The position numbers were made by a program, and so were the translations under genes. Shown one piece after another: positions 40,409 to 52,302 of a stretch of DNA of 64,000 bases. The notes under the pieces were generated by a model that was given only the letters and a program-made list of their open reading frames with translations, searched no databases and was not told where the DNA came from. Source of the stretch: Gemmatimonas sp. (lineage in GTDB: Bacteria; Gemmatimonadota; Gemmatimonadetes; Gemmatimonadales; Gemmatimonadaceae); NCBI GenBank assembly GCA_965279375.1, contig OZ257156.1:3360001-3424000 (forward strand), read 5' to 3'. The stretch's first letter is position 1. Each line of letters begins with the position of its first letter.

Positions 40409-41278
40409 TCAGGGGCACTTGGCCGGCTTGGGCACCGGGCACGACGATCCTGCTTTCGCGCACGTCGCAGCCTGTACCACGAGTCGGTCGCCCAAGCGGG
40501 TGACGGGAAACTGGTTCTGGCCGGGCGTCGTGACGGTGGGCCACGCTTCGACCAGCTGGTCCATGATGCGCGCCGACTCGCGCGCGGACGCGATCGCCGG
40601 ACTCTTGGCCGACGTCCGAAGCTGGGAGAGATCGTAGAGCACCCAGACGTTCTCTGCCGTCACGGCGCCCACGGCATGGTCGCTCGCGTCCTTCTCGTCG
40701 CCTTCGTGCAGCCGGACAGCGATCTGTAGCGCGCTGTTGAGCGTCGCCAGCGCGGCGGACTCATGACCACCGGCGCGCTCGACGGCGGCCATTCCCTGCA
40801 GAAAGGTGACGCTCTCGCGGGTGATTTGACGTCCGACGGCGGGCGTGTCCTCGTATGCCTTCACCAGCACGCTACGAGCACCGGTCGCGTCGCCGCGTGA
40901 GGCCAGGAGCCGCACCAGCGCATCGGCCGCGCTCCGATCGCCCACTGCCGAGGCCGCGACGGCATCGCGGAGCAGTCGGAGAGCGCTGTCGCCGCAGGCC
41001 CGGTGCACGAGATACACGTCGGCGAGGCCGCGCGCGGCCGCTGAGGCCATGGCGCGGTCACCGCTTTGGGTGGCAGCGGCCGCGGCGCGACGGTAGGCCG
41101 CGATGGCGGAATCCGGCTGGGATTCGAGGGCGAGGCGTCGGCCCTCCTGGAACGCGGCCAGCGCTGCAGGATCCTGCGCGAGCAGCGGGCGTCCTGCGGC
41201 CGTCAGGCCAAGGAGCGCCAGCGCACCGGTCAGGGTGCACCGGCGCGCATTTACGAATCGAGGGGGGAGCACGGTCAT
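40409..41278 (-). CDS. Hypothetical secreted helical (TPR-like) protein
   Basis: Signal peptide, helical repeats, Cys-rich C-terminus; GGAG upstream. Confidence 0.65.
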   Translation of the reverse strand: MTVLPPRFVNARRCTLTGALALLGLTAAGRPLLAQDPAALAAFQEGRRLALESQPDSAIAAYRRAAAAATQSGDRAMASAAARGLADVYLVHRACGDSALRLLRDAVAASAVGDRSAADALVRLLASRGDATGARSVLVKAYEDTPAVGRQITRESVTFLQGMAAVERAGGHESAALATLNSALQIAVRLHEGDEKDASDHAVGAVTAENVWVLYDLSQLRTSAKSPAIASARESARIMDQLVEAWPTVTTPGQNQFPVTRLGDRLVVQAATCAKAGSSCPVPKPAKCP

Positions 41279-41328
41279 GCGTTCACTCCGTCGGGGTCAG
41301 TACGAGGTCACCCCGAACTGTACCCCGC

Positions 41329-41748
41329 TCAGACCAGACCGACCAGTTGGGCTGGAGTTTCCAGCGCTTCCTGCGCGGCATTGAGGACAGCTTGGGGCAG
41401 CGGAGAGGACCCGCTGCGGCGCGCGGCCTCGATTACCAGCAGGAGCGCGCGCGCTTGAGCTGCGTACGCAGCAAGCAGTGCGCCACCTGCACCGGGTGTG
41501 GCGGCGATGTCCTGCGCCAGCGACTCGAGTTGCCGCGCCAGCGCGCTCGGGGTGCCTGGCGGCAGCGTAGGCGCGGCTACCGCACCGGTTGGGCGTCGGT
41601 TGGCCGGCAGATCGGCGTACGGTACAGGGGGCTGCACCCCGAAGAGACCCGGAAACGACGTGGGCGCCAACGCTTCCTTCACCCGCTCATTCGTCGCGGC
41701 GATCGCCGCGAGACGCCGACGTGCGGCGCGTGATGACTCAAATCCCAC
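41329..41748 (-). CDS. Hypothetical protein
   Basis: GGAGAA upstream of GTG 41748; Ala-rich helical 139-aa ORF. Confidence 0.6.
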   Translation of the reverse strand: MGFESSRAARRRLAAIAATNERVKEALAPTSFPGLFGVQPPVPYADLPANRRPTGAVAAPTLPPGTPSALARQLESLAQDIAATPGAGGALLAAYAAQARALLLVIEAARRSGSSPLPQAVLNAAQEALETPAQLVGLV

Positions 41749-41770
41749 CTGCTATTCTCCGGATACGCGA

Positions 41771-41809
41771 CTGTCAGACCTTGACAGACGCTGGTCTGTT
41801 ACATAAATG
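41771..41809 (+). promoter_or_regulatory. Palindromic operator overlapping a TTGACA -35
   Basis: CTGTCA-GACCT-TGACAG (41771-41787); TTGACA 41781, TAAATG 17 bp later. Confidence 0.55.
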
Positions 41810-42016
41810 CGACTGTAATGCACGTGGCTGCGGATGCGGACTTAACCGCATGGTGTAGCTTGGTTTCCAGCTGTCGGATCAGCAGGACCTGGTACTGAGG
41901 CCGAAGGTCGCCCTGTGCGATCGTCGCTCTCGGTCGCCACGGAGAAGTTCTGCGCGCGGCCAACTCGGGTTGCGCCCGGAACGGAAGGGTACGAGCCCTC
42001 TTGAGGAGGCGGCTGT

Positions 42017-42958
42017 ATGCACGTCCTCACCCCGGTCGCTGAACGGGACATCGCCGCTCGTGAACTCGCGCTGCTCGCGAGGGCCACGCTCGACGAGCAT
42101 TGGGCGGTCTCCGCGATTCCCGCTGAACGTCGCGCGCTTCTCCTCGAGCGCGCTGACGCGGCTTCGCTCAGCCCAGGCGATGGCCTGGGTGAACCGATCG
42201 CTGATGGCCTCGCCCTCCTCGGTACCGCCTACGAGTTGGCGGCGCTCGGCCAGCTCGAGGCTGCGGTACAGCCGGTGCCCAATGCTGGTCGCGATCTCGC
42301 GCAGGCGGTCCTGGCGCTCGGTGCGGCTCGCGCCTTCCGATGTACCGCGGCGCTCCGCCCCCCCCTCGATGACCGTGAGTCGGCCGTAAAGTGGGCGCTC
42401 CGACTGGGCGCGCTGGCCGTGGTCTCCCGCCAAACCGAGAGCTACCTCAGATGGTGGGAGGTACGCACCGGTGTATCGGACGCGGTTCACCAAGCGGCGC
42501 AGGCGCTCGATGACCAACCCTGGGAACCCTACGCTCGAGGCACGCTCTGGATGGCTTGGCTTGGCCTGATCGGCGCGCCCGTGGGTGGGCTGGCCGATCA
42601 TGCCAACGACGACCTCGCGACGCTCACGGCGACGCGCAGTCGGCTCGCCGCCTTTCGCGAACGACGTAGCGACCACGAGGTGCCCGGGGATGGGCCCGTA
42701 CTCAATGCCGCGGCGCTGCGTGCCCGGATGACCGAGTTCGCGATCCGCCATCTCGCCGACGCCACGGAGCTCCTCACGGTCGCCGTGTTGCGGCGCACGC
42801 TCCCCGATGTCTCGGCCGAGTTCAAACTGCATCTGAGCGCGGCGCGCTCCGCCCTTGCTGGCGATCACGGACAGGATCTCCTCCTGGCGTGGTTACAGGC
42901 GGCGGGCGTTACGCTGGCCGGCGGCGTGACCGCGCAGCTCGAACTCCCAGGATTCTAG
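42017..42958 (+). CDS. Hypothetical all-alpha protein ending in QLELPGF
   Basis: GAGGAGG RBS, 313 aa; see finding. Confidence 0.8.
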   Translation: MHVLTPVAERDIAARELALLARATLDEHWAVSAIPAERRALLLERADAASLSPGDGLGEPIADGLALLGTAYELAALGQLEAAVQPVPNAGRDLAQAVLALGAARAFRCTAALRPPLDDRESAVKWALRLGALAVVSRQTESYLRWWEVRTGVSDAVHQAAQALDDQPWEPYARGTLWMAWLGLIGAPVGGLADHANDDLATLTATRSRLAAFRERRSDHEVPGDGPVLNAAALRARMTEFAIRHLADATELLTVAVLRRTLPDVSAEFKLHLSAARSALAGDHGQDLLLAWLQAAGVTLAGGVTAQLELPGF

Positions 42959-43301
42959 TCCGACCTGTCCGGTCGGCACCGTTGGCCCGCCACACCCGAA
43001 ACACCGTGCGTCCGGTGCTTCCTACCGGGAAGGGCACACGCCCACCCCCGATCGGCGTGATCCCCGACAGCCTCTCCCCCATGGCGCGACGCTCGGCTTC
43101 GTCGAAGACGGACTCGGTCGCGGGCGACTCGAAACGCCACCACGACGCCGACTCCGCCTGCCCGACGCGCACTACATAAGAGTCGTCCGCGGCCCAAAAC
43201 GCCGAGATGCACGAATCCACATCGCCGAATGCCATCGGCAAAGATGTGAGGGGCGCTGGCTCGAGTGAGCCGATCGGTGCTGCGCAGGGGACCGCATTCA
43301 T
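42909..43301 (-). CDS. Possible hypothetical protein
   Basis: 130-aa ORF filling the gap; start and reality uncertain. Confidence 0.35.
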   Translation of the reverse strand: MNAVPCAAPIGSLEPAPLTSLPMAFGDVDSCISAFWAADDSYVVRVGQAESASWWRFESPATESVFDEAERRAMGERLSGITPIGGGRVPFPVGSTGRTVFRVWRANGADRTGRTRILGVRAARSRRRPA

Positions 43302-43419
43302 GGCGAAAAGACGGCGGAGGAAACCTGAATCGTACAGAGAGCCGTTACGTGGCGGGCGGTGATGTTATGACGATCCGAGCGTCCACGCAATACGAGTGAA
43401 CTCGTCTAAGTTGTTGACA

Positions 43420-43564
43420 GCATTGTGGATATGCGTTGGAAATGATGTGGAAAAGCAGGTAAGCCGTGTTCCCGCCGCAGCCTGCGGGCTGCTTGGCTGT
43501 GGAAAAGCAGGTCCGTGACGCCCCCTCGTTTAGGGTCCGGACGGCTGGAATTGTCCACAATGCA
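43420..43564. promoter_or_regulatory. Cluster of DnaA-box-like 9-mers
   Basis: TGTGGATAT 43424, TGTGGAAAA 43446 and 43498, TTGTCCACA 43551. Confidence 0.6.
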
Positions 43565-43736
43565 CCCAATCACAAAAATGCTCTATGCAGGTTTGCAAAC
43601 ACGACCTGCGGCTCGCCGCGAGGTGCGCGCGATGTAACGGGAGGCGACCGCAGCGCGCCAGAATTGCCCATGGCGGCAGGCGCGGCGATTCATCATTGTC
43701 TGTCCAGCACGAACGCCCCCTTTTCTGGAGCCGAGA

Positions 43737-44663
43737 TTGTCGATCGAACCACGCATCGGATTGCTCGTAGGCCGGGAATGGTCCTTCCCGCCTGCCTTTC
43801 TGGATGCGGTCGCACGCCGTCAGTCCGGCGTCGTGGCCGACTACATCAAACTCGACGCAACGCGTATGGCGCAGCCGGTGCCGTACACGCTGATCATTGA
43901 CCGCATTTCACACGAAGTCGGGTTCTATCGGACGTTCCTGAAGCACGCCACGCGCATGGGCGTCACGGTCGTCAACAACCCCTTCATGTGGTCGGCGGAC
44001 GACAAGTTCTACGATGCGACCATGGCGACGCAGCAGGGCGTCGCGCACCCGAAGACGATGGTGCTCCCCAACAAGGACTACATCCCGGGCATCTCGCACT
44101 CGGAGTCGTTGCGCAACCTCGCCTACCCGCTCGACTGGCAGAGTGTCGCTGAGCACATCGGATTCCCGTGCGTGCTCAAGGACGCGCACGGCGGCGGCTG
44201 GCGCGACGTGTACGTCTGCCACTCGATGGAAGAACTGCTCAAGCACTACAACACGAGCGGCCTGCTGACGATGGTCGTGCAGGAGTTCATCAAGTGGGAT
44301 CAGTATGTGCGCTGCATGGTGTTGGGGCGCGATCAGGTGCTGCCCATGCCGTACGATCCGGGGCAGCGTCGCTACATCCCTGACCCGGGCTACCTCTCCA
44401 AGGAGGTCGAGGCGCGGTGCATCAAGGACTCGCTGACACTGTGCCGCAACCTCGGCTACGACATGAACACCGTGGAGTTCGCGGTGAAGGATGGCATTCC
44501 CTACGCCATCGATTTCATGAACCCGGCGCCGGACATGGATATCAACTCGCTCACGCCGGCCTACTTCGAGTGGGTGGTGGAGCACATGGCTGATCTGGCG
44601 ATCAAGCTCGCCACCGCGCCGCGTCCGGCCGCGCCGGACGGGCCTGTGATCGGCCCGCTCTAA
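43737..44663 (+). CDS. RimK/GshB-like ATP-grasp amide ligase
   Basis: 'IIDRISH', 'NNPF', 'FPCVLKDAHGGGW', 'VQEFI', 'YDMNTVEFA', 'AIDFMNPAPD'; TTG start after GGAG. Confidence 0.85.
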   Translation: MSIEPRIGLLVGREWSFPPAFLDAVARRQSGVVADYIKLDATRMAQPVPYTLIIDRISHEVGFYRTFLKHATRMGVTVVNNPFMWSADDKFYDATMATQQGVAHPKTMVLPNKDYIPGISHSESLRNLAYPLDWQSVAEHIGFPCVLKDAHGGGWRDVYVCHSMEELLKHYNTSGLLTMVVQEFIKWDQYVRCMVLGRDQVLPMPYDPGQRRYIPDPGYLSKEVEARCIKDSLTLCRNLGYDMNTVEFAVKDGIPYAIDFMNPAPDMDINSLTPAYFEWVVEHMADLAIKLATAPRPAAPDGPVIGPL

Positions 44664-44676
44664 GGGGTTCGAGGAG

Positions 44677-46029
44677 ATGCTTTCGGGCGCCATCGAGCGC
44701 TACCACCACGGGCTGGAGCAGCCGGATATCGCGGCGGCCTCCGCTGAAGTCATGGAGCGGCAGCTTCGCAGTCAGGGGCTGTTCTTTGGCGACCGCGCGC
44801 TCTGTAGCGTGCTGCGACCGCGCTTCCTGTCGCACGGCGAATACCGCCACATTGCGCGCGCCTGCGCGCTGGTCGGCTCGGCGTTCGAATCAGTGCGCGT
44901 GGCCGCGATGCGCGACAGCGCTCTACGCGCCCAGTTCGGCCTGACCGACTGGGAGGAGCGCCTCATCCATGCCGATCCCGGTTTCGCCGCCGCCAGTCCG
45001 ACCTCTCGACTCGACGCGTTTTTCGCCCCCGGCGCAGATGGGCTCAAGTTCACGGAGTACAACGCGGAAACGCCCGCGGGTGGCGCCTACAACGACGCCC
45101 TGAGTCGCGCGTTCCTTGCGCTGCCGGCGATGCACGCGTTCTCGCGCACCCACGCCGTCTTCCCGATTCCAGCCGCACCGTCGATCGTCCACACGCTCCT
45201 CAACGCGTTCTATCAGTGGCGCGGAGTGCGAGAGGCGCCTTCGATTTGCATCCTCGACTGGGCCGAAGTCCCGACCCGCAGCGAATTCGTGCTCTTCGAG
45301 CAGGAATTCCACGCCCTCGGTATCGATGCCTTCATCGGCGATCCGCGCGACGCCACCTACGAGGGCGGTGTGCTGCGCGTAGGCGGAGAGCCGGTCACGT
45401 TGATCTACAAGCGAGTGCTCATCGACGAGCTGGTGACGCGCGCCGGACTGGATTCGCCTGTGGTGCGCGCCGTGCAGGACGGCGCCGTGTGCATGGTCAA
45501 CCCGTTCCGCTGCAAGCTGTTGCACAAGAAGGCCTCGCTCGCGGTGGTCAGCGACGAGCGACAGGCGCACCTGCTCTCCGATGCGGAGCGCCGCGCAGTT
45601 GCCGCGCATGTCCCGTGGACTCGTCTGGTCGAGGAACGCGAGACCGAGCGAGACGAAGAGTCGGTGGACTTGGTGCCGTGGATCGCGGCCAACCGCGAAC
45701 GCCTGGTGCTCAAGCCGAACGACGAGTACGGCGGGAAGGGGATCGTGCTGGGGTGGACGGTGGACGACAGCACGTGGCAGGCGGCCATCCAGACTGCGTT
45801 GGCTGAACCGCACATCGTGCAGGAACGGGTCGTCGTGCCGAGCGAGCTGTGGCCGGCGTTCGCGGACGGGGCATTGCATCTGGGTGAGCGCATGCTGGAC
45901 ACGGCACCGTTCCTTGTGGACGGTGTTACGGTGACCGGTGTGCTTACGCGGATTGCGACCGATCCTCTACTGAACGTGACCGCCGGTGGCGGTTCGAACG
46001 TGCCGACCTTTCTCGTGGAGGAGCGCTGA
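44677..46029 (+). CDS. Circularly permuted ATP-grasp protein
   Basis: 'SRLDAF', 'EYNAETPAG', 'IYKR', 'LVLKPNDEYGGKG', 'VQERV', 'NVTAGGG'. Confidence 0.88.
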   Translation: MLSGAIERYHHGLEQPDIAAASAEVMERQLRSQGLFFGDRALCSVLRPRFLSHGEYRHIARACALVGSAFESVRVAAMRDSALRAQFGLTDWEERLIHADPGFAAASPTSRLDAFFAPGADGLKFTEYNAETPAGGAYNDALSRAFLALPAMHAFSRTHAVFPIPAAPSIVHTLLNAFYQWRGVREAPSICILDWAEVPTRSEFVLFEQEFHALGIDAFIGDPRDATYEGGVLRVGGEPVTLIYKRVLIDELVTRAGLDSPVVRAVQDGAVCMVNPFRCKLLHKKASLAVVSDERQAHLLSDAERRAVAAHVPWTRLVEERETERDEESVDLVPWIAANRERLVLKPNDEYGGKGIVLGWTVDDSTWQAAIQTALAEPHIVQERVVVPSELWPAFADGALHLGERMLDTAPFLVDGVTVTGVLTRIATDPLLNVTAGGGSNVPTFLVEER

Positions 46030-46814
46030 TGTCTGCGCTACGACGCCCGGTCATCGGGCTGACAACACAAACGCTGCATTCCATCGATGGCATTCCCCCC
46101 GGGCTCCCATCGTCGTGGGTGATGAACCAGCGCTACTTCCTTGCGGCCACCATGGTGGGCGCTGTGCCGTGGATGATTCCGTTGCTCGATGACGATATCC
46201 ACACGCTGCGCGAAATCTACGAGCGGCTGGACGGCATCCTGATTCCGGGCGGCGTGGACATCAGTCCACGCGAGTACGGCGAGGAGATCCGACCGGAATG
46301 TGGAAATCTTGATCCCGCACGAGATCGTGTTGAGCTACAGCTCGTTCGCTGGGCCATCGAGGACGGCAAGCCCGTACTTGGGCTGTGCCGCGGTTTGCAG
46401 GTCATCAACGTCGCGTCGGGTGGATCGCTCTGGCAGGATCTCGCCTCACAAAACGGCTCATTCCACAAGCACGACTACTTCCCAACGGCCGGGTACGAGC
46501 GCGATCATCTGGCGCATGAGGTCGAGCTCGTGCGCGGCACGCGTCTGGCAGAGTTGATGGAGTCGGCAAGTGTGCCCGTGAACAGCATGCATCACCAAGG
46601 GGTGAAGCAGCTTGGACGCGAGTTGGTGGTGTCGGCCACTGCGCCTGATGGGCTGATCGAGGCGTTGGAAGGCGCGGACCACAGCTTCCTGGTGGGCGTC
46701 CAGTGGCATCCTGAGGTGTTCGAAATGGCGGACCCGCATGCGCGGCACCTCTTCGGCAGCTTCATTCGTGCGGCAAGCGAATGGCGTGCGTCCGAGGAGT
46801 CCGGGCGGGTCTAG
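46029..46814 (+). CDS. PuuD-like gamma-glutamyl hydrolase (peptidase C26, class I GATase)
   Basis: 'PGGVD', 'GLCRGLQVIN', 'VNSMHHQ', 'VQWHPE'. Confidence 0.92.
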   Translation: MSALRRPVIGLTTQTLHSIDGIPPGLPSSWVMNQRYFLAATMVGAVPWMIPLLDDDIHTLREIYERLDGILIPGGVDISPREYGEEIRPECGNLDPARDRVELQLVRWAIEDGKPVLGLCRGLQVINVASGGSLWQDLASQNGSFHKHDYFPTAGYERDHLAHEVELVRGTRLAELMESASVPVNSMHHQGVKQLGRELVVSATAPDGLIEALEGADHSFLVGVQWHPEVFEMADPHARHLFGSFIRAASEWRASEESGRV

Positions 46815-46858
46815 GATCGCGCGGTGATCGGTTCGGCCCGATGGGGCCGGGAGGGGTG

Positions 46859-48085
46859 ATGCGGGGGCCGAGCCTGACAGTGGGAATCGAGGAGGAGTAT
46901 CAGATCATCGATCCGGTGACGCGTGATCTCACGCCCGGGTTTGATGCACTGATGTCCAGTGACGCGGCCGTGTTGGCCGACGCCAAGGCGGAGCTGCACC
47001 AGTGTCAGGTGGAGATCGGCACCAAGGTGTGCGGGTCGATCGCCGAGCTACGCACCGAGCTGACCAAGCTTCGTGGCCTCGTCATCAAGGCGGCCTCTCA
47101 GCACGGGCTGACGATCGCGTCGGCGGGGACGCATCCGTTTTCCAACTGGATGAACCAGGAGATGACGCCCAAGGAGCGGTACTTGGGTGTGAAGGCGGAG
47201 CTGCAGGATCTCGCGCATCGGCTGCTGATTTTCGGCACGCACGTGCACGTCGGCATCGAGGATCCGGAGTTTCGCATCGACTGTCTGAACGCCTGTCGAT
47301 ACCTGCTGCCTCACGTTTTGTGTTTGTCCACAAGCTCGCCGTTCTGGTTTGGACGCAACACCGGGCTGCACTCCTACCGCAGCATCGTCTTCAAGAATTT
47401 CCCCCGCACCGGTGTGCCGCGCATCCTGAACGGGTGGAGTGATTTCGCCGAGCTGACGGACACGTTGGTCAAGACGAAGAGCATTCCGGACGGATCGAAG
47501 ATCTGGTGGGATGTGCGCCCGCATCATTTGTATCCGACGCTCGAGTTCCGCATTTGCGACGTGAACACGCGCGTGGACGAGGCGATCTGCGTGGCGGCGT
47601 TGCTGCAGGCCGTGGTGGCCAAGATGTGGAAGCTGCGTCGAGACAACATGAGCTATCGCGTGTACGCCTCCGATCTCATCGAAGAGAACAAGTGGCGTGC
47701 TGTTCGATGGGGGCTGGGCGGCAAGCTGATCGACTTCGGCAAGAAGGAAGAGATGCCCGCGCCGGTGCTCATTCGCGAGCTGATCGAGTGGTTCCTCGAT
47801 GACGTGCTGGACGAGCTGGGCACGCGCAAGGAAGTGGAGTACGCGTTTCACATCATGGAGCACGGCTCGAGCGCGCAGCGTCAGCTGGCCACCTATGCGC
47901 GAACGGGCGATCTGCGCGCGGTGGTCGATCAGCTGATTCGCGAGACAGCGGAAGGGGTCTGTGAGCCCACGCTCGGACCGGCGCTCAACCTCGTGGATTC
48001 GCCGCTGCTGGCGGGCGCGGAAGGGACGATCTCCGTGCCCTCCAATCGTCCGACTGGCGCCGTTCGAGGACAATCAGTGCCCTGA
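46859..48085 (+). CDS. GCS2/YbdK-family carboxylate-amine ligase
   Basis: 'VGIEEEY', 'FGTHVHVG', 'SSPFW', 'IWWDVRP', 'TLEFRICD', 'ENKWRAVRWG'. Confidence 0.93.
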   Translation: MRGPSLTVGIEEEYQIIDPVTRDLTPGFDALMSSDAAVLADAKAELHQCQVEIGTKVCGSIAELRTELTKLRGLVIKAASQHGLTIASAGTHPFSNWMNQEMTPKERYLGVKAELQDLAHRLLIFGTHVHVGIEDPEFRIDCLNACRYLLPHVLCLSTSSPFWFGRNTGLHSYRSIVFKNFPRTGVPRILNGWSDFAELTDTLVKTKSIPDGSKIWWDVRPHHLYPTLEFRICDVNTRVDEAICVAALLQAVVAKMWKLRRDNMSYRVYASDLIEENKWRAVRWGLGGKLIDFGKKEEMPAPVLIRELIEWFLDDVLDELGTRKEVEYAFHIMEHGSSAQRQLATYARTGDLRAVVDQLIRETAEGVCEPTLGPALNLVDSPLLAGAEGTISVPSNRPTGAVRGQSVP

Positions 48086-48228
48086 GGGCCCGGTCCGAGA
48101 AGAAGTGCGGAGGGGTACTAGGGAGAAGTACCAATGCAGTCGTGGTGAGACGAGGACTAGCCTGCACGTGCGTTCGATCCCGAGCGCCAATGCATGCTGG
48201 TCCTTTTCGTTTCCCCGTCTTCCCGCTC

Positions 48229-49320
48229 ATGTCCGTGTCTTCGCGTTTCTCTGGCCGCGCGCGCTTCGCGCTGTCGCTCTCCCTGTTTGCGTTTGGTGCC
48301 GTTGCCTGCTCTGAAGGGCAAGCTGATCCCACGGGTCCGACCACCGGAACCCCGGAAGCCGCGATCAATCAGGTGGTCACGTTTGGTCCGCTGAACGCCA
48401 GCAGCACTGATACGCTGGTCTACTTCAGCTTTGCCATTGGCGGCCTCGTCGCACGTAGCGGCGATTGGGACCTTGCGTTTCGTCGCTACGAGCTGCGCCT
48501 GAACAGCCCCGCGATCGGCGGTGCGACAAGCAAAAACGTGCTGGGCTACGCACTCGACAACAACAAAGCGGCGACGGACGCGCAGGTGTTGGCCTTCACG
48601 CCGGCGAACACGTTGGCGCCGTTCGACAGCCTGCGCGCTGCGCGCGTTCCCGCCGACACCCTGTTCCAGACCGATCGATTGGCGGTGAATCCGCAGGCGC
48701 ACCTCAACCTTGGCGGGTTCCCGACGGCGAACGCGGCGAATTATTGGAAAGTGCGTCGCGCGGACGGCGGGTATGCCGTGGTTCGGACGACCGCGATTTC
48801 CTTCACGCAGCAGCGGGCGGTTCAGTCGATCACATTCGAGATCCGCGCACAGGTTGGCGCGACCCTTGGTGCACCGCAGACGCTCGTGCTGACTCCGGCG
48901 GGACAGACGACGTCGTTCTCTCTGAGCACGGCCAGCGTGGTGGCATCACCGGCCGGATGCAACTGGGATTTGCGCTTCGATCCAAATCCGACAGTGCTCG
49001 GCGTCGAGGTGAACAGTGGCTGCTCGGCGGGGACTTACCCGGGGCCCGCGTCGCCAACGTTCGCGAACGCCACCGTGGCGAACGATGCGCCGCAGTATGC
49101 GAGCTATCTGTCGCAGCTGGTCGGCCCGATCCCCAACTCGGTCGTCGACAAGAGTGCTCCGTTCCGCTACAACCTGACGGGGACGGATCGGTTGCACCCG
49201 GCATTCAACACCTATCTCGTGAAGAGCGGTACGAAGGTGTTCAAGGTGCAGGTGACGGACTATTACAGCAACACCGGCGCGCCCGGCTTCCCGACGATTC
49301 GCTACGCGCGCATTCGGTGA
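48229..49320 (+). CDS. hmuY: HmuY-family lipoprotein
   Basis: 'GAVAC' lipobox, 'WDLAFRRYELRLNS', 'KVQVTDYY..G.PTIRY'. Confidence 0.82.
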   Translation: MSVSSRFSGRARFALSLSLFAFGAVACSEGQADPTGPTTGTPEAAINQVVTFGPLNASSTDTLVYFSFAIGGLVARSGDWDLAFRRYELRLNSPAIGGATSKNVLGYALDNNKAATDAQVLAFTPANTLAPFDSLRAARVPADTLFQTDRLAVNPQAHLNLGGFPTANAANYWKVRRADGGYAVVRTTAISFTQQRAVQSITFEIRAQVGATLGAPQTLVLTPAGQTTSFSLSTASVVASPAGCNWDLRFDPNPTVLGVEVNSGCSAGTYPGPASPTFANATVANDAPQYASYLSQLVGPIPNSVVDKSAPFRYNLTGTDRLHPAFNTYLVKSGTKVFKVQVTDYYSNTGAPGFPTIRYARIR

Positions 49321-49330
49321 GGCGGCTTTG

Positions 49331-51547
49331 ATGAAAGCGGCAAAGGGTCCGCTGGTGGCTCGTGCTCGTCGCTCGCTGGCGCTGCTGTTCTGGGCGCCGG
49401 CGTTTGTCGTTGGCGCCACTCGCACACAGGCGCAGTCGGCGCAGTCAACAATCGCTGCGTCGAATGCTGCGGCTTTCACGGTGGAGGGGCGCGTGACGGG
49501 GCGAAGCGATGCGGCGCCAGTGCTGGCCGCAGTGGTGCGCGTGTCTGGACTCGATTCGCGTACACGCAGCGATGAGACGGGAACGTTTCGCATCGTCGCA
49601 CGACTGGGCGACACGGTGCATGTGAGTGCCCTGGGCTTTCACGAATTGCGCACTGTCGTGCGCGGCGCGCGAATGGAAGTGCGGCTGGAGGCATTGCCGA
49701 CCGTACTGCCCGTGTTCACCACCACGATGGGGCAGCGCGTCATTCGCGCCAGTGAATCGCCACGCAGCGTGACGGTGCTCGACCGCCGCGAGATCGATGC
49801 GACAGCGGCAATCTCGGCGAATCAGTTGCTGCGTCAGGTGCCCGGCCTGCAGGAGCTTCCATCGCCGCCTTCCAAGACCTCGATCTCGATTCGTGGGTTC
49901 GATGACTCGCGCGTGCTCGTGCTGGTGGATGGCGAGCCTGTGTCGGGGGCGCTGATCGAGAGCCGAGATATCGGACGGTTGTCGACGATCGCGACAGAGC
50001 GCATCGAAGTGACGAAGGGTCCGTCGAGCGTGGAGTTCGGCAGCGATGCGTTGGGCGGGGTGATCAACATCGTGCAGGCCGCGCCGACATCGCGGCTCAC
50101 GGTGGACGGGATGGCGCGCGCCGGTGGATTGGGGCGGCAGGAGTCCACGCTGGGCGTGAGTCAGACGGTGGGTGCATTCGGCTTTCGGCTGAATGGTGGG
50201 TGGCGACAGTCGGACCGCGTGACCGGCTATAACGCCGCCGGCTCGACGTTCAACCGCATCTACGATCTCCGCGGCGACTTCCGCTATCGGATTTCGTCGC
50301 GGCTCTCTCTGCGGATGGATCTGCAGGGTTCGCAGGAGCGGCAGCGCTTTCCAGTGGACGCGCAGTTCAACGGCTTCATCGACAATCGCGGTGGGCAAGG
50401 GTTTGTGGAGGCGCAGGCTTCGGTGCTGGGCGGCAGTCTGCGCGCGCGCGCGTTCGAGCAGCGCTTCACCTACGAGTATCGTCAGTCGCGAGGGCTTCTG
50501 CCCATTCGAGGATCCGCGGATTCGCTCGAGCAGCGTGAACGGCAGGGGCGGTACCTGCTCGCGTTCACTCGCGTGTTGGGTGGCCACGCGATCGATCTGG
50601 GGGTGCAGCGCTCCGAGCGAACACTCGTGGCGCCCAAGAAAGTGGATGGCGACAGCGCCCGCGATCACGTCACGGAAGTGTTCGCCCGAGATGCTTGGAC
50701 CGCGGGCCCCGTGCAGTTCACCGTGGGTGCACGCCATAGTGCCAGCGCGTTGTGGGGAAGCAGCACGAACCCGTCGGTGGGGTTGGCGTGGCAGCTATCG
50801 CCCGCATGGCGCCTGCGCAGCAACGTGGCGCGAGGCTTCCGCGCGCCGGGCTTCAAGGAGATCCGCTACACCTTCTTCAATCCGGCGGGAGGATACACGC
50901 TGGTGGGTAACGCCGCGTTGCTTCCGGAATCGTCGGTGAGCGGAACCCTTGGCGCGACGTGGGCACCGTCAGCCTCGCTGTCGATCGATGTGGAAGGGTA
51001 TCGCAACGACGTGGACGACTTGATCGACTGGCGTTTCCAGGGCAACAACCCGGCGGGCTATCAGGTCTACAAGAATGTGAACGTTGCGCGCGCACGCACG
51101 CAGGGGATCGAGAGCAACGTGCACGTTGTCCGGGGGGCCACGGAGCTGTCGCTGGGCTACGACTTCCTGCGCGCGCGCGATCTTGGCACGGGCGTGCCGC
51201 TAAGCCGCCGGGCGACGCATACGGCGCGCGCGCGTGTGGCACGCGAGTGGGCGGTGCGGAGCGGAATGACCACCGACCTCTCGGCGCGCTATACCGGCAA
51301 CGCGCCGCTAGTCGGCATCCCCAGTGGCGCCCCGATCACCGGCGCCTTTTCCACCGAGTCGGGCGTGATCGGCCGGCAGGGGGCGTTGCTGTCCGTAGAC
51401 GCGCAGTGGCGCCTGGCGTTGATCAATGGCGCGGAGTTGTCGGCCGGTGTGAACAATCTGCTCGATCAGCGCCCGGCGCTGTGGACGCCGGCGTTCGCGC
51501 GTCAGTTCTACGCGGGAGTGCGGTTGCGCTGGGCGGGGCGGCAGTAG
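49331..51547 (+). CDS. TonB-dependent receptor (HmuR-like, probable heme/iron uptake)
   Basis: 'RIEVTKGPSSVEFG', 'RGFRAPGF', 'NNLLD'; directly follows hmuY. Confidence 0.88.
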   Translation: MKAAKGPLVARARRSLALLFWAPAFVVGATRTQAQSAQSTIAASNAAAFTVEGRVTGRSDAAPVLAAVVRVSGLDSRTRSDETGTFRIVARLGDTVHVSALGFHELRTVVRGARMEVRLEALPTVLPVFTTTMGQRVIRASESPRSVTVLDRREIDATAAISANQLLRQVPGLQELPSPPSKTSISIRGFDDSRVLVLVDGEPVSGALIESRDIGRLSTIATERIEVTKGPSSVEFGSDALGGVINIVQAAPTSRLTVDGMARAGGLGRQESTLGVSQTVGAFGFRLNGGWRQSDRVTGYNAAGSTFNRIYDLRGDFRYRISSRLSLRMDLQGSQERQRFPVDAQFNGFIDNRGGQGFVEAQASVLGGSLRARAFEQRFTYEYRQSRGLLPIRGSADSLEQRERQGRYLLAFTRVLGGHAIDLGVQRSERTLVAPKKVDGDSARDHVTEVFARDAWTAGPVQFTVGARHSASALWGSSTNPSVGLAWQLSPAWRLRSNVARGFRAPGFKEIRYTFFNPAGGYTLVGNAALLPESSVSGTLGATWAPSASLSIDVEGYRNDVDDLIDWRFQGNNPAGYQVYKNVNVARARTQGIESNVHVVRGATELSLGYDFLRARDLGTGVPLSRRATHTARARVAREWAVRSGMTTDLSARYTGNAPLVGIPSGAPITGAFSTESGVIGRQGALLSVDAQWRLALINGAELSAGVNNLLDQRPALWTPAFARQFYAGVRLRWAGRQ

Positions 51548-51705
51548 ATCGGTTCCGGGTCGCGGGTCGTGGGTTCGTTACAGATAACAATGCGACGCGA
51601 CCGCAACGGTGGTGCGCGCTTGAGGGCGTGATGCAGATTTCCGAGTGAACGCTCTCATGCCTCGAGCATCGACATCACTTTCGACCCAACGAAGAGACCT
51701 GCCCG

Positions 51706-52302
51706 ATGAAGCTCGCCCAAATGCTCCGCGACAAGCATCTCGATGTCTGGGAAGCCTTTGCACTCGAAATTGGCGGGACCTGGAATAGCCCCGGACTGGG
51801 CGATACACCGCGCATCGACGTTGCTCACGCGCGCGGCCCGGTGCGCATTGAAGGCAACGTGACGTTGGTGCTCGTGGGAAAAGTGCTCGTGCCCATGCTG
51901 TCCACCAGCTTCGTTGCGCTCCTGCCTGCCACGCACGAACAGCGATTCTCCGTGTCTCGTGCCTCGTTCGCCTCGGCGGTCGCGGATTGGTTCGGCGCGC
52001 TCGATATCCATGTGGACGACGAGGAATTCGACAAAGCGTTCGTGCTCAAGGGCGAGACGCCGGACATCGTCCGCGAACTCTTCGCCAGCGCGGCGCTCCG
52101 TGAACGGTATCTGCGCGACTTCGAAGGGCAGCTGCATCGTCGCGATGACAAGACGTTGTTCGGCGACCCGACGCCGGACGCGGACCCGTTTGAGCTGTCC
52201 GTTCCGGGCTACGTCGATACGATCGAGCGGATGCGTGCGCTGTGGGCCCTTTTTGTCGAGACGCTCGAACGCTTGCCGGATGGTCCTGCGCGTGCTGCCT
52301 AG
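51706..52302 (+). CDS. Hypothetical protein
   Basis: 198-aa ORF, 'DIHVDDEEFDKAFVLKG'. Confidence 0.7.
   Translation: MKLAQMLRDKHLDVWEAFALEIGGTWNSPGLGDTPRIDVAHARGPVRIEGNVTLVLVGKVLVPMLSTSFVALLPATHEQRFSVSRASFASAVADWFGALDIHVDDEEFDKAFVLKGETPDIVRELFASAALRERYLRDFEGQLHRRDDKTLFGDPTPDADPFELSVPGYVDTIERMRALWALFVETLERLPDGPARAA

Follow-up and report, generated by a model that had tools for sequence, protein, structure and literature searches.

What is made, or unmade, by two ATP-grasp ligases, a peptidase C26 and a GCS2 ligase encoded side by side? The question is raised by a four-gene operon in a stretch of 64,000 nucleotides of Gemmatimonas sp. contig OZ257156.1 (the window), whose genes, called A to D here, are arranged as follows:

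43737 to 44663, plus strand: gene A, intact open reading frame (ORF) of 308 amino acids with a TTG start and GGAG upstream
44677 to 46029, plus strand: gene B, intact ORF of 450 amino acids
46029 to 46814, plus strand: gene C, intact ORF of 261 amino acids
46859 to 48085, plus strand: gene D, intact ORF of 408 amino acids with a GTG start

An earlier reading of the letters (the original prediction) had taken these genes for an operon of a RimK/GshB-like ATP-grasp, a circularly permuted ATP-grasp, a C26 hydrolase and a GCS2 ligase, forming a self-contained pathway for a gamma-glutamyl peptide. The four ORFs were re-found at 43737..48085 with gaps of 13, -1 and 44 base pairs (bp) between A/B, B/C and C/D, and family assignments and predicted folds agreed with all four enzyme classes. 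In our judgement, there is about an even chance that the operon serves to assemble a small gamma-glutamyl peptide without tRNA and to turn it over. The stretch was covered in one piece, with 0 differences, by contigs from two public runs of one sample (possibly its own source), and belongs to a genome consisting of a single 5.31-Mb contig (C1) that is 99.95% complete. The closest relatives were Gemmatimonas/Gemmatimonadaceae records at 85–94% identity. Scans for sigma-70 promoters and terminators gave no signal above shuffled sequence, and an Rfam search of positions 41000-52000 returned 0 matches.

Gene D is predicted from its sequence to be a GCS2/YbdK-family carboxylate-amine ligase, corresponding to the PRK13515 equivalog. 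It scored 185 bits against PF04107, exceeded the cut-off of TIGR02050 and reached 522 bits against NF010039 (the PRK13515 equivalog, cut-off 371). It also carries the GhExE motif described for GCS2-fold ligases in PMC2588565. Residues E11, E13, E45, E52, R107, Y108, H128, H130, R174, E229 and R231 are invariant, and D is the sole GCS2 protein of the genome. In YbdK, to which D is approximately 30% identical, the ERY motif binds the carboxylate of the acceptor; since this motif is retained in D, an amino-acid acceptor is favoured.

Gene C is a predicted gamma-glutamyl hydrolase, a peptidase C26 with the class I amidotransferase fold (210.5 bits against PF07722, cut-off 20.5), whose triad C120, H227 and E229 is invariant in 19 sequences. 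Its nearest solved relatives were Lin1909 and the hydrolase PuuD, the latter with an E value of 1e-33, a resemblance that would fit Puu-type catabolism of an amine via a gamma-glutamyl intermediate. However, C reached 131.5 bits against the PuuD equivalog NF008471, whose cut-off is 266, neither of the two PF00120 matches of the genome (C1:1695173 and 1802958) is close to the operon, no PuuA-type ligase, oxidase or dehydrogenase is encoded in it, and two ATP-grasp ligases would be left unexplained. We therefore give the Puu pathway, which the original prediction had named as an outcome that would refute it, next to no chance.

Gene B is, on the evidence of its structure model (predicted local distance difference test score, pLDDT, 94), predicted to be a circularly permuted ATP-grasp ligase, PF14403-like and with the fold of YgiC, glutathionylspermidine synthetase (GspS) and eukaryotic glutathione synthetase (GSS). 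Its 26.7 bits against CP_ATPgrasp_2 (PF14403) lie below the gathering cut-off of 32; the precomputed annotation nevertheless assigns PF14403 to it, as well as to 118 of the 120 gene B matches listed. The top structural match, of the YjfC/YgiC/GspS/eukaryotic GSS-like type, had a Z score of 32.6 (root-mean-square deviation, rmsd, 3.1; 370 residues aligned), and full-length matches to YjfC, YgiC, GspS and eukaryotic GSS reached Z 25–33 over 330–424 residues at 10–16% identity, in contrast with Z values below 10 for standard ATP-grasps, as expected of the permuted fold. Residues R111, D113, E127, N129, K346, Q382, R425 and N433 are invariant, and the R-x-D and E-x-N motifs, shared with YgiC, YjfC and GspS, are invariant in 38 sequences. 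A sequence search of solved structures with gene B alone was uninformative. The best structural matches were the E. coli YgiC/YjfC peptide-spermidine ligases and GspS (Z 30–33, 12–15% identity), whose operon differs from the one described here. The acidic pair of the GspS DKDIEE loop, which takes part in amine binding, is aligned to non-acidic residues in B.

The top Foldseek matches of B were human and plant glutathione synthetases, and a GCS2 ligase paired with a ligase of the eukaryotic GSS fold also characterizes glutathione synthesis by GCS2-type GshA or YbdK plus GSS. D and B might make glutathione or a homoglutathione-like thiol in a non-canonical way, with A extending the product, which we consider quite unlikely. 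In its favour, GshA (PF04262) and GshB (PF02955) had 0 matches each in the genome, which also means that the canonical glutathione pathway, a further refuting outcome named beforehand, is not the one encoded, and D is the only GCS2 protein available. Profiling against GshB, proposed as a check, was uninformative: none of the 36 operon-bearing genomes among 151 from Gemmatimonadota has a full-length GshB, but the protein occurs in just 4 of the 151, too few for its exclusion to say much. Further, BshC is present in the genome and indicates bacillithiol as the thiol buffer, B is by Z as close or closer to YjfC, YgiC and GspS and only 12–14% identical to GSS, and glutathione needs neither the RimK-fold ligase A nor the esterase introduced below, the C26 hydrolase being a further addition to that pathway.

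Gene A is predicted, from its structure model, to be an ATP-grasp ligase of the standard type with a RimK/LysX-like fold; its family has no name. It has no match in Pfam and scored 46.1 bits against the RimK family TIGR00768, below the cut-off of 143.4. The model (pLDDT 95.7) matched RimK best (Z 22.8, rmsd 2.8, 261 residues aligned), its nearest folds being RimK, LysX and ArgX at Z of about 22 and approximately 16% identity. K90, K148, Q182/E183, R192, E247, D259 and N262 are aligned with the ATP/Mg residues of RimK, so that both fold and ATP/Mg-binding residues place A among the ATP-grasps. In contrast to RimK, LysX and ArgX, the family has a conserved insertion at residues 111-133, and no S6 or LysW partner was seen. 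Searches of solved structures by sequence gave weak matches, the ESM Atlas returned unnamed ATP-grasp clusters only, and a plasmid search for gene A had no match; the family comprises 1899 clusters at 50% identity (E <=0.001).

A and B also occur as a single protein. The fusion P0274 is stop-free, 783 amino acids long, has 4 members and matches A at 45% and B at 36%; it is one clean case among 7 long gene A matches. P0276 and the shorter P0189, P0241 and P0246 were rejected as fusions, as they read like frameshift artefacts; the long proteins P0273 and P0275 have unrelated domains.

RimK, LysX and ArgX act on proteins. The GCS2-fold ligase PafA likewise tags proteins (PMC2588565), and the four enzymes might attach a peptide tag to a protein and take it off again in the manner of RimK/LysW or of alpha-E systems. 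We regard this as very unlikely. The gaps of 13, -1 and 44 bp leave no room inside the operon for a carrier gene or for a short precursor-peptide gene as in graspetide and other RiPP clusters, and no carrier recurred among flanking ORFs of at least 90 amino acids, flanking ORFs below that length not having been searched. The only alpha-E gene of the genome lies at C1:4684676, 1.28 Mb away, in line with the original prediction, which had seen none adjacent. The alpha-E/transglutaminase/Anbu tagging system is described in PMC5666114.

Taken together, the class assignments and the retained active sites speak for enzyme class and intact sites, not for substrates. Eighty loci with gene A were fetched, and gene order was counted in the 50 that reach at least 5 kb past the start of A: ABCD in 23, ABDC in 14, AB in 9, ABD in 2, A alone in 1 and CA in 1. 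All four genes thus occur together in 37 of the 50, in two orders, a conservation far beyond chance, as the original prediction had required. Within Gemmatimonadota, gene A was found in 36 of 151 genomes, and the same 36 have a close B, a close D, C (35 full-length, 1 partial) and an E1-type esterase of family PF00756; outside these 36, a close D was present in 6 genomes, a close C in 1 and the esterase in 3. Stand-alone close D orthologues (55–65%) were seen at loci L084-L088, and three such genomes have tandem ATP-grasps and esterases elsewhere.

Rearranged versions of the gene set were found in Chloroflexota, in Planctomycetota and on Bacteroidota-like contigs, the latter being 80 metagenome loci whose taxon was assigned in this analysis, as the records carry none. 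Among the genomes sampled, 30 of 121 from Chloroflexota and 36 of 121 from Planctomycetota have gene A, as has one of 121 from another phylum, that of genome G276, the single case being G276 itself. Twenty of the 30 Chloroflexota matches were fetched; A, B and D stood together, in varied order, in 12 of them, D was found elsewhere in five of five genomes whose locus was without it, and C26 genes at 42–46%, the same level as unrelated paralogues, were present in four of four Chloroflexota genomes whose locus had no C. In the 80 Bacteroidota-like loci, the genes beside A were D in 66, esterases of type E2 in 62 and of type E1 in 39, a glutamine amidotransferase (GATase) in 38 and a divergent B (B') in 33. 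Here, a class-I amidotransferase of PF00117, different from C, fills the slot of C, which suggests that the function was kept rather than the protein.

The gene for the PF00756 esterase, present in all 36 operon-bearing genomes, is usually found just upstream of the others. It belonged to the locus in 38 of the 39 non-Gemmatimonas loci whose upstream DNA was long enough, but in 0 of 26 Gemmatimonas-clade loci. In the genome studied here, it is unlinked (C1:949080-949799). As it is co-inherited in 36 of 36 genomes and yet encoded elsewhere, the operon is not self-contained; on this point the original prediction failed, whereas its enzyme classes and conserved gene set stood. Three distant places of this genome hold the genes for both types of esterase and two more ATP-grasp genes in tandem; esterases are encoded at C1:949080-949799 and C1:1031107-1031928. 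Of the 36 operon genomes, 11 have the tandem pair (G000:C1:3627149-3629641; L081:7150-9642). In several Gemmatimonadota its orthologues lie inside the operon or next to it, and in Planctomycetota they flank a distant A clade together with esterases. In the ORF clusters inspected around the loci, no transporter, signal-peptide-type or redox gene recurred, and no M20 peptidase stood out, although no dedicated family search was made for it; M32 and M17 peptidases occurred in 3 loci each.

From the genes and their families, the folds predicted for them, the catalytic residues that they retain, the co-inheritance and the A-B fusion, we infer the substrates, order of steps, product and role as follows. 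D would join glutamate via its gamma-carboxyl to an alpha-amino acid, giving gamma-Glu-X, as the chemistry of its family suggests. B, like glutathione and glutathionylspermidine synthetases, would activate the new C-terminus and extend it by one more residue, and A, which can be fused to B, may add another residue or residues in the manner of RimK/LysX. C would take off the gamma-glutamyl group, and the PF00756 serine hydrolase encoded elsewhere would be a fifth, obligatory component that cuts another bond.

Several observations weigh against this scheme. The proposed gamma-glutamyl peptide chemistry is drawn from that of the families, and the structural relatives of A and B are only 12–17% identical to them and span peptide, polyamine and inositol-phosphate chemistry. 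The RSN loop of RimK is missing from A in the profile alignment, and A has D-x-x-N where RimK has E-x-N. Among the 151 Gemmatimonadota genomes, the close D and C found outside the operon genomes (6 and 1, respectively) occur without A and B in the case of D, and the 36 operon genomes are kin rather than independent events, so that their co-occurrence is a profile and no statistical test. Further, a C-like gene was found in the locus in only 2 of 20 Chloroflexota, and the similarity of the Bacteroidota B' to B is weak (hhalign probability 13%, E 0.002).

The position of C bears on two other explanations. In ergothioneine and butirosin biosynthesis, a gamma-glutamyl group is attached and later removed (by EgtA and EgtC in the former), and the group could likewise be a temporary protecting group here, attached by D, carried while A and B extend the molecule, and taken off by C in a maturation step, so that the final product is without it. 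This is a doubtful alternative. C or its replacement adjoins D in the ABCD and ABDC orders of Gemmatimonadota as well as in the Bacteroidota-like loci, as a coupled biosynthetic step would have it; however, this adjacency fits turnover equally well, and the scarcity of C in Chloroflexota loci (2 of 20) argues against the idea. The same adjacency, which holds in most arrangements, the class I amidotransferase triad of C and its substitution by a PF00117 protein would also fit a glutaminase supplying D or another ligase with ammonia for the amidation of carboxyls, as GatA does for GatB. We consider this role extremely unlikely, since the nearest solved relatives of C are Lin1909 and a hydrolase, PuuD, and C is often unlinked in Chloroflexota.

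Apart from a small peptide, a polymer may be considered as the product, i.e., a gamma-glutamyl analogue of cyanophycin or poly-glutamate, for which D and B would make the unit, A would polymerize it, and the esterase-fold enzyme and C would degrade it. RimK, the best structural match of A, is titled poly-alpha-L-glutamate synthetase, and strongly basic C-terminal tails, rich in Lys, Ala and Pro and histone-H1-like or AT-hook-like, were found in 17 of 97 full-length representatives of the gene A family, some of them with AT-hook-like repeats. Such tails are known from granule- and nucleoid-binding proteins, e.g., PhaF. Tailed homologues include P0146, P0147, P0168, P0173 and loci L161-L240, and a quick, unfinished family tree, used solely to place them, has tailed members in several clades. 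In the Bacteroidota-like loci, they were present in 19 of 77 A proteins, a count inflated by a query that was itself tailed, compared to 2 of 222 partner proteins (D 0/59, E2 0/57, E1 0/39, GATase 2/36, B' 0/31) and 4 of 120 other neighbours. However, A of the window has no basic tail, the genome already has a cyanophycin synthetase and glycogen genes, and storage genes lie near few of approximately 255 loci (glgA 7, glgB 4, cphA 3, glgC 1), several of them close kin. A polymer is therefore an unlikely product. At L166, L169 and L170, three close kin, a cyanophycin synthetase gene directly follows the operon, with glgB upstream in two.

Returning to the assembly and turnover of a gamma-glutamyl peptide, a system of this kind seems to have been predicted in silico before. 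In 2009, Iyer, Abhiman, Burroughs and Aravind (Mol Biosyst 5:1636) reportedly predicted small-peptide synthesis for a PF14403-type neighbourhood, and the Pfam text for PF14403 predicts the same for such neighbourhoods. In that neighbourhood, genes for a permuted ATP-grasp, a GCS2 ligase, an alpha/beta hydrolase and an amidotransferase-type hydrolase come together, as they do here if the distant esterase is counted, and both the linked GCS2 ligase and the linked amidotransferase-type hydrolase were found at this locus. The differences here are an alpha/beta hydrolase gene that lies apart from the others (although it is linked in the 38 non-Gemmatimonas loci mentioned above), the position of C ahead of D, the presence of A as an additional, standard ATP-grasp in the core set, and the lack of a recurring M20 peptidase in the ORF clusters inspected. 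We know of no experimental product for that neighbourhood. The pairing of a gamma-glutamyl ligase with an amidohydrolase also recalls PuuA/PuuD and EgtA/EgtC of ergothioneine synthesis; in contrast to these, the ligase here is of the GCS2 and not the PuuA type, oxidases and a sulfoxide synthase are missing, and two ATP-grasp ligases are added. No experimental test, product or assay of the operon was found in a literature search that lacked most subscription journals, and the available portions of PMC2588565, PMC12568646, PMC13674229 and PMC6920838 do not treat it. The operon is real and conserved, and adds one more member to a system for which an in silico prediction exists.

Upstream of gene A lies an element with the following predicted sites:

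43407 to 43559, no strand assigned: leader element with an IHF-like (integration host factor) site and four DnaA-box-like 9-mers
43407 to 43418, minus strand: IHF-like site
43424, minus strand: DnaA-box-like 9-mer 1
43446, minus strand: DnaA-box-like 9-mer 2
43498, minus strand: DnaA-box-like 9-mer 3
43551, plus strand: DnaA-box-like 9-mer 4

The sites were located with motifs that we take to be the DnaA-box and IHF consensus, and the IHF search pattern included the variant of this window. These putative sites, within 435 bp upstream of A, are conserved across 15 aligned sequences. The four DnaA-box-like sites are beyond chance, as 3000 simulations yielded at most two, and the cluster is the densest of the genome with a strict pattern and the second densest with a relaxed one. 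At least two boxes upstream of A were found in 30 of 31 Gemmatimonas-clade loci, compared to 1 of 45, 0 of 20 and 1 of 76 elsewhere. The leader was rejected as oriC: dnaA, together with dnaN, is found at C1:1.20 Mb, close to the minimum of the skew (1.24 Mb), a dif-like site (3.755 Mb) is close to its maximum (3.77 Mb), and no turn of the skew is seen at 3.40 Mb. This places the origin at about 1.2 Mb and the terminus at about 3.76 Mb. The leader is separated from dnaA by 2.2 Mb, and the dif-like site follows 350 kb after it. The element could represent either a site of the datA/DARS kind or a promoter of the operon under DnaA control. A literature search found no earlier description of it.

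Further relaxed DnaA-box-like clusters are present at G000:C1:4014949-4015086 and 3754706-3754858, one in an ORF and one beside the dif-like site. An ORF of 654 amino acids with two tandem Bac_DnaA domains (G000:C1:3511503-3513464) also occurs in four of five relatives checked; its neighbours presumably include chemotaxis and MglA-type GTPase genes, going by their translations.

Upstream of the leader are two conserved genes without a Pfam match, at 42909-43301 on the minus strand and 42017-42958 on the plus strand, the former a divergent gene of 130 amino acids that recurs in 30 Gemmatimonas-clade loci. Directly 3' of the operon (48142-51547) are genes for an HmuY-family protein and a TonB-dependent receptor, found at the locus in 18 and 16 loci, respectively, of the Gemmatimonas clade only. 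This pair is probably a separate haem-uptake unit.

A broader reading would join tails and leader: a widespread, unrecognized gamma-glutamyl-peptide storage or stress polymer, counterpart of cyanophycin, whose polymerase A is anchored in many lineages by histone-like tails that bind either the nucleoid or the acidic polymer itself, and whose operon in Gemmatimonas is tied to the replication cycle via a leader bound by DnaA and IHF. This is speculative and very improbable.

Whatever the product, the gene set is common in phyla that are abundant in soil and freshwater, and identification of what it makes would add a new primary-type metabolite or polymer along with three ligases of new specificity. 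In practice, heterologous tests need the unlinked esterase as well, and the leader holds a DnaA/IHF-like element.

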